Shown: positions 7,886-61,160 of the stretch, piece after piece
How positions within the stretch are numbered: position 1 is the stretch's first letter
Layout: every line of letters begins with the position of its first letter
Source of the DNA: Octopus vulgaris
Taxonomy: Eukaryota
Assembly: GCA_951406725.2 (NCBI GenBank)
Contig: OX597828.1
Coordinates: 4,650,001 to 4,714,000, forward strand
Direction of reading: 5' to 3'
DNA length: 64,000 nt
Position numbers and translations under genes: made by a program
The notes under the pieces: generated by a model
Told to the model about the DNA's origin: nothing
Database searches by the model: none
Seen by the model: only the letters and a program-made list of their open reading frames with translations

Positions 7886-8220
7886 AGTAACAATAAAGGG
7901 TGAAATTAATTAATTTGGAATAATTATCAATTACACCAAGTAGATTTCGGCATGTAAAAGCCTCATTCGAGGAAAATTTAAGTAATACTAAGCAATTAAG
8001 GGTTTAGTAACGAATTGCCTCACCAACACACCGAATTTAGAAATAGCAGTCAAAGAGATATAGCTATTCCTTCTACTAAAAGGGAGATCTCAGTAAAAAC
8101 ACAGCACTTGAGATCTCCCTTTTAGTAGAAGGAATAGCTATATCTCTTTGACTGCTATTTCTAAATTCGGTGTGTTGGTGAGGCAATTCGTTGCTAAACC
8201 CTTAATTGCTTAGTATTACT
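7886..8220. mobile_element. TA-embedded fold-back element, family A
   Basis: 112-bp arms 7981-8092 / 8109-8220 with about one mismatch; similar to 11739 and 52633. Confidence 0.8.
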
Positions 8221-8289
8221 ATATATATATATATATATATATTAACATATATACACAAACTCACGCATAAACTCTCACACGTATAAATG

Positions 8290-9176
8290 ATTTACTTTTT
8301 AAATGATGAGCTGGAAAATGTAGTGCAAGCGAACACATGGCAAACTACGCGGCATAAGTTCAAGGTTTGATGTTTCGATTCCAAATATGTTGGACTGACT
8401 GAAACAAATGAGCAAGGTAAAAAGTGCTTGAAAGGTGGATGCCACACGAACTGAACGAGCATCAAATGACACGTCGTCTTGAAATTTACTGTTCTTTGTT
8501 TTCCCAGCATAAAAATGAACAATTTTTACATCGTTTTGTTACATGTGATGAAAAATGGATTCATTTCCACAATAGGAAGCGTTCAACAATAGGAAGAGAG
8601 AAGTAGTAGTACTTAAACACAATCCAAAGTAGAATATTCACCAAAAAATGCTAATGCTGTCTGTTTGGTGGGTCACCACTGTTGTCATCAACTACGGCTT
8701 CTTGAGATCTGGTAAGCGGATGTAAACATCAACCATTTTGGTGAAATGATGAGGGAATTTGCAATTAAACGAACCGAGATTGGTCAACAGAGAGAGGCCA
8801 AATTACTTGCAAGACAATGCTCGACCACATGTTGCAGAAAGAACGCTACTCAAATTACAGGAACTGAAGTGGGAAGAACACTATCATCCCCCATACTGAC
8901 CAAACCTTGCACTAACTGACTATTACCTTTTCCAGGCATTAGAAAACATTTCGTTGGGGAATAAAACTGCAAATCTGAAGAAGATGCAAAAAAAGCCTTT
9001 CGTGACTTTATCACCTTTTGCCTCCAGTATTCTTCGGAGCTGGCATAAATAAGCTACCGATGAAATGGCAAAATAATTTTGGTGCATACTTTGAGTTACG
9101 GCATTGCTTTTTGTTGAGATAAAGTAAAATAAGCTTTCAGCTCAAAATTGGACATTTCATTCTTAATGAACTGATA
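8290..9176 (+). mobile_element. Mariner transposase relic, 5'-truncated
   Basis: WMPHEL, VTCDEKWI, LQDNARPH, HPPY*PNLALTDYYLF; TIR-like end at ~9150-9176. Confidence 0.85.
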
Positions 9177-11211
9177 CAAGTGTTAAGATGAGATGGCAGT
9201 ATTATTTTTATTTTTGCGTAATTTAGACAATATATTCATCCTACCCTGTATATATATATATATATATACAGGATGAGGTGAATATATATTCATAATATAT
9301 ATATACATAAATGTGTCTATATATCTGAAGAAACATATGTGCATCTATGTATATGTGCAAAATATAGAGACACATATACATATATATGTGTGTGCGATTG
9401 TGTGTGTAAGTGTGTGATTGTGTGTGGGTGTGTGAGTGCGTGCATAAAGATTATTATTTTCAGTAGGTAGTGGGGATACGCTGAGAAAATATTCAGTAAA
9501 CTTCCAGCATGTATTACCACCATAAATATACTATGTATAGGCATGACATCCATGGTGATAAACAATTAGGCTTTGCCCAGTCACGCGATGTTACACAATT
9601 ACGAAACAACCACTTCTGCCCCATCCTCCATCACTACCACAGTGGATCTAAAATTACTGCTTCAAATTTTATCTTTATTTGTAAAAATGATTCTATTTTG
9701 CATGTTTCTATTACTAAACTGTGTAAATGTTTGTGTTACAAATTTGAAGACTTTTAATCGAATAAATAAATAAACTTTCCTCATTATGTTTTTCATTATT
9801 ATGTTTTTCCTCATTATGTTTTTCATATCCCTATCATACTGGACAGAATCTTGGAACTGAAACCGAGGCTCTGTGATCAGAAAATAAACTTTTTGACAAT
9901 GATGTATGCTGCATTTAAAACTGTTTTGTGGATATTGCTGGCGAAATTTCCCCGAATAGAATATAACACTAGCACAATTTCTTCAATTGTATAATTTTAA
10001 GTTATGTTCGTGTGGCAATACTTCACAGTTGCAACATGTCTGTGAGAGACGTTACATTTTGGTAATGGTAACGTTATTAATGAGATCAGTTATAACATTA
10101 TAAATATCAATGTCAATTATAAACATGTTAATTAGCAGCAATACAATTTGAAACAATTAATACGAGTAAATATATTATCAACAATGACTAATTGAAAATA
10201 ATTTATAAAGAATTAAAAATTAAATTCTGCTGAATCCACAAAAACATTTTCTTTTAGAAATAATTAGATTAAAGAAAATACTTAAATTATTTCTAGAATG
10301 TTATCTATAGACATGAACTAATCAATAAATTCGAGTGAACTTGTTAACATACACAGAAAAATCCTCTCCGAAAATAAACAATTGCAAAGCTAGCCATGAC
10401 TTACGAAAGAGTTATGATGTGAAGAGTAGTTGAAGTGTGTTAGCGGATATATATATATATGTGTGTGTGTGTGTGTATGCGTATATGTGTGTGTGTGTGC
10501 ATGTGTGTGAGTATGTGCGTTTGTGTGGGTGTGTGTTTAATGTATGTTTATCTATATCTATATATATATTCATATATGTACATATATACATATACATACA
10601 TATATATATAGATAGATATACATACACTATATATGTATTCTATATATATATATATATATATAGTGTATGTATATCTATCTATATATATGTATATATAGAT
10701 AGATATACATACACTATATATATATATGCATGCATACGCACATATATTTATATACACGCATATATACAATTTACAATTCATATTACAGATACAAGTCTTA
10801 GCTGCATTTCTATATTTACCGCTTTTATATCATGTATTTAAAAAAGCTTCAGTTTCATTTCTTTGTTATTTTCTTTTTGTTTTTCTGTATTATATGATTA
10901 ACGCTGTCGCATTTATTGGTGATATGGTTAAATTTGTAATATTTCAGTATTTAAAAAGTTCAACGAGGATCCGGTGTTTTAAAGTTTATAGTTTGTATTA
11001 CGAATATGTATAGGGGTTTCATAATATATAATAGATAATATTTTAGTTAATAATGTTTACCACGCGTATACATACATATATGTATATATATATATATATA
11101 TATATATACATATGCTTGTGTGTGTGTGCGTGTGTATCCGTCAACATATACATACATACATACATACATACATACATACATACATACATATATATATATA
11201 TATATATATAA

Positions 11212-60089: not shown

Positions 60090-60235
60090 GGATTTTTACA
60101 GGGCTTAAAAGCAATGAAGGGCCGCTGCAATAAGTGTTTGCCTGAGAGGTTAATACGTTGGATAAAATCATAATTTACTGATCCTCCTGGGTTTTCTTCT
60201 ACCCAACGTCTGGAACTTTTTCAGCAGCCCCTCGT
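60090..60235 (+). mobile_element. Mariner 3' end, same family as 44110
   Basis: TIR-like end ggaactttttcagcagcccctcgta. Confidence 0.65.
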
Positions 60236-60513
60236 AGTGCCTATTACGCACAAATCCTGTTTTCTGATTGGGTAAAAGTGATCAAGCTTTAAACTTCCGT
60301 AAAATTTTCTAAAATTTTTGTGGAATTAATGAATCACTAACTCGAATACAGCGTAAAAAATTAAATCATTAAAAAAATTTGAAACTTTTCACTTAATTTT
60401 AAAATTTCAAACTCTTTGACAGCAAATCAATAGATCTCTCTCTCTCTTTCTACACACACACACACACACACACACACACATATATATATATATATATATA
60501 TATATATATATAT

Positions 60514-61160
60514 AATTCAGAGAAGAATACAGTGTACGTTCAAACACAAAAGAGATACCGAAGAATAGGATATCTGACACGCTAGAAAGAGCAGTTAAAA
60601 CTCCAAGCCACCAAACTAAGAATTTTCCGATTAATATTCTTGCTAAGATTTTAATTAATGATAAAATGTTTTTTGGCTACTTCTGGAAGGAAATCGGCAA
60701 TTTATTTATTTAGTGCTGGTTGAGTTTCCGCATCTGCGCGGTCAATTCGAAAAACTAGAACCTATAGACACGTGGCAGGTTATTTATCGCTCCGTGCCTA
60801 TGTGTTCAGTCCTGGCAACCTACTGAAGAAGTAGCGTCAGATATAGACTGAAATTATCTTATTTCAGTCTGTATTTAAGTCTGCAGAAACCTTGCAGGGT
60901 CTAGGATTAAGGTAAATTTTTTTATTTTTCAATCACTTTCGGAATTACAACAATTGGTGGCTTGGAGTTTTAACTGCTCTTTCTAGCGAGTCAGATATCC
61001 TATTCTTCAGGTATCTCTTTTGTGTTTGAACGTACACCGTACACTGTATTCTTTTTTGTATAATATATAGTCTATTGACTAATTTTTTTCTTTCTTGCTA
61101 GACCACTGGTAACTAAGAATTTTTCGATGAATATTCTTGCTACCCCAAGATTTTAATTTA
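60514..61160. mobile_element. TA-embedded retrozyme-like element: inverted ~100-bp arm plus ~1.1 units of 497 bp
   Basis: Inverted repeat 60520-60613 / 60955-61052; direct repeat aactaagaatttt at 60614 and 61111. Confidence 0.8.
60817..60907 (+). ncRNA. Type I hammerhead ribozyme with extended stem II
   Basis: ccta-CTGAAGA-agtag...16-bp hairpin...ctgca-GAAA-ccttgcagg-GTC-tagg; first pair of stem II is mismatched. Confidence 0.75.

Follow-up and report, generated by a model that had tools for sequence, protein, structure and literature searches.

Why do four families of repetitive elements, which are otherwise largely dissimilar, keep the same 17 nucleotides? The question is raised by a 64-kb stretch of the Octopus vulgaris genome (contig OX597828.1; hereafter the window, from which the evidence comes), which is AT-rich (GC content 0.29-0.40), rich in microsatellites, and carries insertions of four element families, here called A to D. 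The elements as such belong to a known class: B, C and D consist of tandem 417-497-nt units, i.e. they are non-long-terminal-repeat (non-LTR) retrozymes. Since retrozymes that depend on Penelope-like elements (PLEs) are thought to borrow the PLE enzyme, the shared motif bears on the cis signals for such borrowing. We conclude that it is a real, constrained cis element of PLE-dependent retrozymes and probably an intron end. More specifically, we tentatively favor the view that it forms the acceptor end of a 75-89-nt intron of the pseudo-LTR (pLTR), derived from a Penelope-like ancestor that the families have in common. With splice-like signals on either side and two fixed, putative starts of reverse transcriptase (RT) close by, the motif presents a single 17-nt stretch to mutate and a single, exactly defined joint.

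Conservation of the motif in four element families

With at most 3 mismatches, the motif matches the window 12 times, as opposed to 0.05 matches expected (100 shuffles, never more than 1). Together with three weaker variants, all in family C, this amounts to 15 copies in the four families, which stem from seven insertions and three to four lineages and do not represent 15 independent events. The first-pass annotation had named seven variants, each of which is present where it had been placed: in the family A insertions termed A0 (8147-8164, +, ending in TAA), A1 (11899-11916, -, ending in TAA) and A2 (53106-53123, +), in the family B insertion (26355-26372, +) and its short relative B5 (54021-54038, + arm), in D (60969-60986, +), and, as a weak variant, in C (13767-13783, -). 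Beyond that list, six copies occupy opposite arms or tandem units (8037-8054, -, ending in TAA, in A0; 25102-25119, -, 25591-25608, -, and 25869-25886, +, in B; 52778-52795, -, in A2; and 60582-60599, -, in D), and two more belong to family C, namely a partial variant in its second unit, cut by inversion (14184-14201, -), and a weak variant in its + arm, which ends in TAG and lacks a donor-like hexamer upstream (14514-14531, +). Scored with a matrix trained on the other families only, the family C variants belong to the 27 sites that exceed 8 bits, far lower than the 12 strong copies, and membership of this family is weaker, with 5/500 shuffles in the four-family test. A further motif-like word ending in TTTTTAG (48923-48940, -; 13 bits) lies outside any element and may be a host splice acceptor or a product of chance.

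The motif is the best 17-mer common to B, A1 and D as well as to B, A2 and D (0/500 shuffles each); pairwise words shared by B and D, B and C, or C and D were not significant. Among the three-way blocks of family A, it ranks first, with 16/17 identical columns compared to 119/230 overall (71 of 5000 column shuffles), and a second block inside this family reaches 15/17. The motif is thus more conserved than its flanks. These two tests, the shared 17-mer and the family A block, support a constrained cis element as had been proposed, although the roles listed for it at the time omitted the one best supported by position, a splice-acceptor end. The accompanying statement that the four families otherwise do not align has to be corrected, as B and D still align with the motif cut out, both downstream (z 9.4) and upstream (z 5.4; 0/500 shuffles each); the alignments A-B, A-C, B-C and C-D reached z values of at most 2.7. 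Due to the similarity of B and D outside the motif, the families are to be regarded as kin rather than as independent, with the motif most readily understood as the part of a single ancestral terminal repeat that has been conserved best.

Kinship alone might explain the motif, as the last recognizable ancestry shared among PLE-derived families, without any present function. The plain homology of B and D, a GGT..ACC terminal hairpin common to A, B and D, and the second block of family A all agree with such an explanation. Likewise, the 40 of 91 family B substitutions listed spare the motif, but they also spare the wider interval 26343-26418, and one variant inside the B motif shows among loose ends. 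However, A and B agree at 15-16 of the 17 positions (0-2 of 100 shuffles) while their upstream flanks do not align at all (z -0.2 and -0.5), and non-coding repeats so diverged should lose such a block in the absence of selection, which in our judgment makes mere ancestry improbable. A coding remnant (Leu-Ala-Ala-Ile-Ser) was rejected, as the three frames around the motif are broken by stops and frame shifts within families.

Outside the window, at least 124 exact matches to the motif (at least 5 viral, at least 119 from metagenomes) were accompanied by no hammerhead, no donor and no (TA)n, where full flanks were at hand for 80 and 200 nt upstream for 115; these collections are mostly microbial and thereby uninformative on animals. 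A gapped pattern of the motif gave two prokaryotic matches in the same collections, which we judged to be chance. The letters of the motif were absent from the main texts searched, and in the supplement on Naiad, Hydra and Chlamys elements (PMC8557442), as far as its text was available and bearing in mind that words in supplements may be split by line ends, word matches occurred only within open reading frames (ORFs) or unrelated untranslated-region (UTR) text and none in a terminal repeat. Families A-D may nonetheless be catalogued already in repeat libraries or supplements.

An intron-like segment ending at the motif

The order of parts is hammerhead, GT(A/G)AAT with a T tract, motif, hairpin with a short 3' end, and hairpin with a long 3' end. 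A hexamer GT[AG]A[AG]T, the consensus of a splice donor, starts 75-89 nt before the end of the motif in A1, in both arms of A2, in four copies of B, in D and in one arm of C, that is, in 9 of the 15 copies examined and in 9 of the 10 that keep the upstream region, with all four families represented. The other five copies were set aside because inversion had removed their upstream part, and one of them shows a hexamer at a distance of 69 nt, in sequence that is not homologous. The resulting segments extend from GTGAAT to the motif end in A1 (11899-11981, -; 83 nt) and A2 (53037-53123, +; 87 nt, no terminal AG), from GTGAAT to TTTAG in C (13767-13847, -; 81 nt), from GTAAAT to CTAG in B (26297-26372, +; 76 nt, 78 in other copies), and in D from a GTAAAT preceded by AAG through TTAAC to CTAG (60912-60986, +; 75 nt). 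As background, 5.5% of 41-nt spans of the window hold the hexamer; the product of the shuffle tests for its spacing was 2e-5 with four families and 3e-4 with B and D counted as one, figures that are generous because the hexamer had already been seen by eye in B and D. This spacing is tighter than that of the motif to the hammerhead cut site (66-120 nt), to the short end (35-67 nt) or to the long end (110-174 nt).

Further features agree with an intron. The motif ends in TAG in 10 of 15 copies (10/10 in B, C and D, 0/5 in A), likeness between families stops at the AG, and branch-like words (TTRAC or TTGAT) are found in D, C and A0. In addition, a broken relative of Hydra-clade PLEs in the same window, which lacks the motif, displays GTAAAG 4 nt past its cut site and a YAG at 7811, 23 nt before an ATG at 7834 that resembles an ORF start.

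Several observations weigh against an intron. All five family A copies end in TAA (CAA in one copy), yet the motif is the best block of that family, and no aligned AG follows it (the next lies at +3 in A1, +10 in A2 and +22 in A0). Position +5 is A in every donor-like hexamer, and position -1 is not G in those of A and C, both of which make weak donors; A1, A2 and B carry G at the branch-like position. One arm of C lacks the hexamer despite keeping its upstream region, whereas GTGAAT occurs at 7795 in the tail of the Hydra-like PLE, where such a donor role is impossible. Moreover, identity between families exceeds what a generic acceptor needs. Finally, the joint expected from splicing, 26296 to 26373, was seen in none of the four contig sets matched to one B unit (4 of 20 listed, three guessed to be RNA and one unassigned; family B only); three joints are listed in these sets, including a rare one at about 0.3% depth, none of them being this one. 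Its lack is weak evidence, as contigs drop rare forms and most repeat transcripts come from host read-through.

The same contig sets reveal other traits of family B, which is very abundant (6899 contigs matched in set X15) and present in the sets of five organisms. Between 26030 and 26513, A>G differences occur at 17, 13 and 23 places in the sets guessed to be RNA compared to 10 in the large set. The excess could reflect adenosine-to-inosine editing or subfamily differences; other set-specific changes exist.

Hammerhead ribozymes and their distance to the motif

A strict scan, requiring an exact core and three helices, recognized hammerheads three times in family B and once in the Hydra-like PLE. 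The type I hammerhead of B (26178-26296, +) has its core at 26192-26198, GAAA from 26267, a cut after 26282 and helices of 8, 4 and 4, and further copies lie on the minus strand (25194-25284 and 25683-25773). By eye, D carries a hammerhead-like motif (60819-60905, +; core 60823-60829, GAAA at 60886, GTC at 60899-60901) with core, helix I and palindromic helix III but an imperfect stem II, which the strict scan missed. A2 retains a damaged remnant (52954-52989, +) with the core CTGACAA and stem II almost gone, and C an atypical core without the UH triplet (near 14352-14400, +), both likewise by eye; neither scan nor eye found a hammerhead in A0 or A1. Rfam gave no hammerhead or other credible family in the window (in one search, none among the 150 of 243 rows listed). 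The motif was said to lie 65-125 nt downstream of a hammerhead, and this range holds, with 72 nt from cut site to motif in B, 66-67 in D, about 120 in A2 (damaged core) and, measured from its core, about 115 in C (by eye); of the four families, however, only B passed the helix test, and Rfam recognized none.

Contigs of family B vary at the free position N7 and change loop 3 from TGCA to TATA while keeping the palindrome, as would be anticipated for dimer-type ribozymes (PMC4209133). In the large set, one contig joins 26234 to 26283, the first base past the hammerhead cut; it may have been copied from cleaved RNA or reflect a deletion at a microhomology. Nine letters are common to the 5' strand of helix I in B (26180-26191) and the second half of the motif, and the motif might accordingly pair with the 5' end left by cleavage; such pairing with the cleaved hammerhead arm is possible in B only and was not seen in D.

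Insertions, 3' ends and rival roles of the motif

Two inverted arms with their 3' ends facing outward are found in 6 of the 7 insertions. A0 (7884-8219) is a palindrome with a long 3' end on its - arm, a short one on its + arm and (TA)n on both sides; A2 (52630-53180) has inverted arms with the long end on - and the short end on +. In the B insertion (25065-26513), which again has (TA)n on both sides, two inverted arms carry tandem units of about 488 nt; C (13657-14566) and D (60515-61160) have inverted arms with units of about 417 and 497 nt, respectively; no tandem units were seen for A. The exception is A1 (11742-12000, -), a single arm with a long 3' end and no recognized hammerhead, whose upstream 270 nt matched no other family. 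The B unit junction, 26513 to 26030, recurs in contig set X15, the largest examined. No PLE-like ORF of at least 100 aa was found in A-D.

Each family has two 3' ends, a short one 35-67 nt and a long one 110-174 nt past the motif, and one of each is present in all six two-armed insertions; real tests of this rule number four, all of them positive (A0, A2 and both B insertions), because the ends of C and D were defined by their own single insertion. Contig sets X1 and X2 independently contain the short end of B with (AT)n behind it. Hairpins precede most ends: in B, one accompanies the short 3' end (26373-26411, +), the putative first RT start, and a GGT..ACC terminal hairpin the long 3' end (26468-26513, +), the putative second. 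GGT..ACC closes the long ends of A0, A1, A2 and both B insertions; that of D folds partly and that of C does not. Directly adjoining (TA)n is found at 11 of 13 arm ends, while A1 reaches (TA)n after 4 nt and the long end of C runs into (TACA)n. In the short insertion B5 (53871-54078), the - arm has only the long end and the + arm the donor, motif and short end; a single stretch of the unit is covered by its two arms, which do not overlap (about 26292-26411 and 26426-26513), resembling the outcome of twin priming at two fixed sites of the same RNA.

These ends bear on two of the roles that might be assigned to the motif. That it acts as a priming determinant, as initially considered, is unlikely because copies end 35-67 or 110-174 nt beyond it, behind hairpins. 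More plausible, but still somewhat doubtful, is that it serves as a tag on the template RNA, immediately upstream of the first RT start, to which the RT/endonuclease of a partner PLE binds, its splice-like look being secondary or ancestral. Such a tag would account for the motif being kept at 16-17 of 17 letters in family A, which lacks the AG, for its place directly before the short-end hairpin in all families, and for its absence from the Hydra-like PLE (best match 13/18 in the body, 9/18 in the tail), as expected if it were partner-specific. Furthermore, the anole Poseidon protein depends on RNA close to a pair of internal RT starts in a stem-loop, although that binding region lies inside the ORF (PMC11167929), and pLTRs suffice in cis for mobilization in trans (PMC3846280). 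The tag alone, however, leaves the GT..AG bracket unexplained, and the distance from motif to 3' ends varies two-fold. Nor is there a shared fold: the consensus energy was -1.4 kcal/mol, pairing to upstream sequence beat shuffles in only 1 of 8 copies, and the covariance analysis that had been suggested as a check revealed no shared stem with covariation above shuffle level (8 copies). A shared hairpin was rejected, as only family A forms a bulged stem, which B, C and D do not follow.

Conservation of primary sequence without a fold would also fit a DNA site, for instance an element of an internal pLTR promoter driving the next tandem unit, which we consider quite unlikely. The motif is, as we take it, no RNA polymerase III A box, and its C would presumably disrupt the A/T core of a MEF2 site. 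The Penelope promoter is indeed internal with its intron within the promoter region, and family A and the Hydra-like tail both contain ACGTGAAT, which is similar to the RGACGTGY element, but deletion of the D. virilis intron left transcription intact (PMC2377424).

A proposed model for a probable retained intron

We return to the intron end as the favored reading, for which the following course may be envisaged. The tandem unit would be transcribed and the transcript cut by the hammerhead, probably as a dimer with palindromic loop 3. In an autonomous partner, mRNA would arise once the spliceosome had excised the segment, as in Drosophila Penelope, and the RT/endonuclease of that partner would copy unspliced RNA into (TA)n from the two fixed, hairpin-marked starts. 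With the unspliced RNA as template, the segment would be kept in every genomic copy.

The motif is, however, kept more strictly than ordinary splicing would need. Given the lack of a shared fold, it reads as a single-stranded sequence signal, and its survival in family A despite the lost AG makes a second sequence-specific role likely. One bolder, and on balance unlikely, combination is that the motif is the template-selection tag of the PLE RT placed within the intron's 3' end, such that splicing removes the tag and only unspliced RNA is copied. A comparable arrangement is known from retroviruses, where the region removed from env mRNA by splicing contains the packaging signal. If true, a tag inside the intron would account both for the retention of introns by PLEs and for the loss of the AG, with the motif kept, in non-coding parasites like family A. 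The significance of intron retention in PLEs has so far been called unknown (PMC8557442).

Comparison with known systems

Families A-D resemble metazoan non-LTR retrozymes as described in PMC7229834 and 10.64898/2026.07.22.740005 in being non-coding tandem units of low GC content and very high copy number with a type I hammerhead motif, PLE-like ends and a short helix III with a palindromic loop. They differ in unit length, 417-497 nt here as opposed to about 170-400 (PMC7229834), the other source giving 51-972 (10.64898/2026.07.22.740005), and in a very long helix II and inverted arms with two fixed ends. In contrast to the intron-like segment common to A-D, no such segment is mentioned in the available text of either source.

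The closest precedent is the 75-bp pLTR intron of D. virilis Penelope, whose donor and acceptor are conserved at 67% overall identity and which is needed after transcription (PMC2377424). Like the 75-89-nt segment of A-D, it resides in the pLTR, has splice sites conserved beyond their flanks and is retained through retrotransposition; unlike that segment, which starts 10-50 nt past the cut site, it ends 5' of hammerhead helix I (PMC4209133). Moreover, splicing of Penelope has been demonstrated (PMC2377424), whereas the segment of A-D is a candidate intron and lacks the AG in family A. Introns in the 5' UTR are, nevertheless, expected in other PLEs (Craig et al., PMC8557442).

With endonuclease-containing (EN+) PLEs, A-D share the inverted, 5'-truncated arm, the one-arm tail and (TA)n targets (PMC8557442, PMC3846280, PMC11167929), as well as two RT starts near stem-loops, as in the anole element (PMC11167929). 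Their tails are longer, about 75-105 nt (about 220 in the Hydra-like PLE) compared to 30-40 bp, and A-D contain no ORF. Hydra-clade PLEs such as Hydra-1_Obim (PMC8557442) likewise combine (TA)n targeting, a canonical hammerhead and a cephalopod host, and a broken relative lies in the window; unlike A-D, this element lacks the motif. The terminal repeats of A-D matched neither this one PLE of the window nor, by word search, the available Naiad, Hydra and Chlamys supplement.

The Hydra-like element and other features of the window

The broken Hydra-clade-like PLE (5148-7870) encodes RT and GIY-YIG domains on the minus strand, interrupted by stops and frame shifts, and has a hammerhead at 5205-5276 (-). 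Its inverted pLTR (7653-7870, +) has a tail of about 220 nt ending just past the ATG at 7834, which by eye reads like the start of Hydra-1_Obim (PMC8557442); assignment to the Hydra clade is equally a by-eye match to the alignments in that source. Pfam and PDB did not recognize the ORF. Between the RT thumb and GIY-YIG lies a long asparagine-rich stretch, and N-rich inserts like it were described in rotifer Penelope elements (PMC3846280).

Decayed pieces of a Tc1/mariner-type transposase are located at 8330-9180 (by eye) and 39998-40333 (Pfam HTH_Tnp_Tc3_2). Repeats like short interspersed nuclear elements (SINEs) are present in many copies (11209-11513, 20497-20770, 21692-22221, 23775-23961, 32526-32742 and 48679-48904) and presumably resemble octopus tRNA-derived SINEs. 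Finally, two related coding fragments like those of non-LTR retrotransposons, 73-80% alike, are found at 45339-46176 and 62129-63615.

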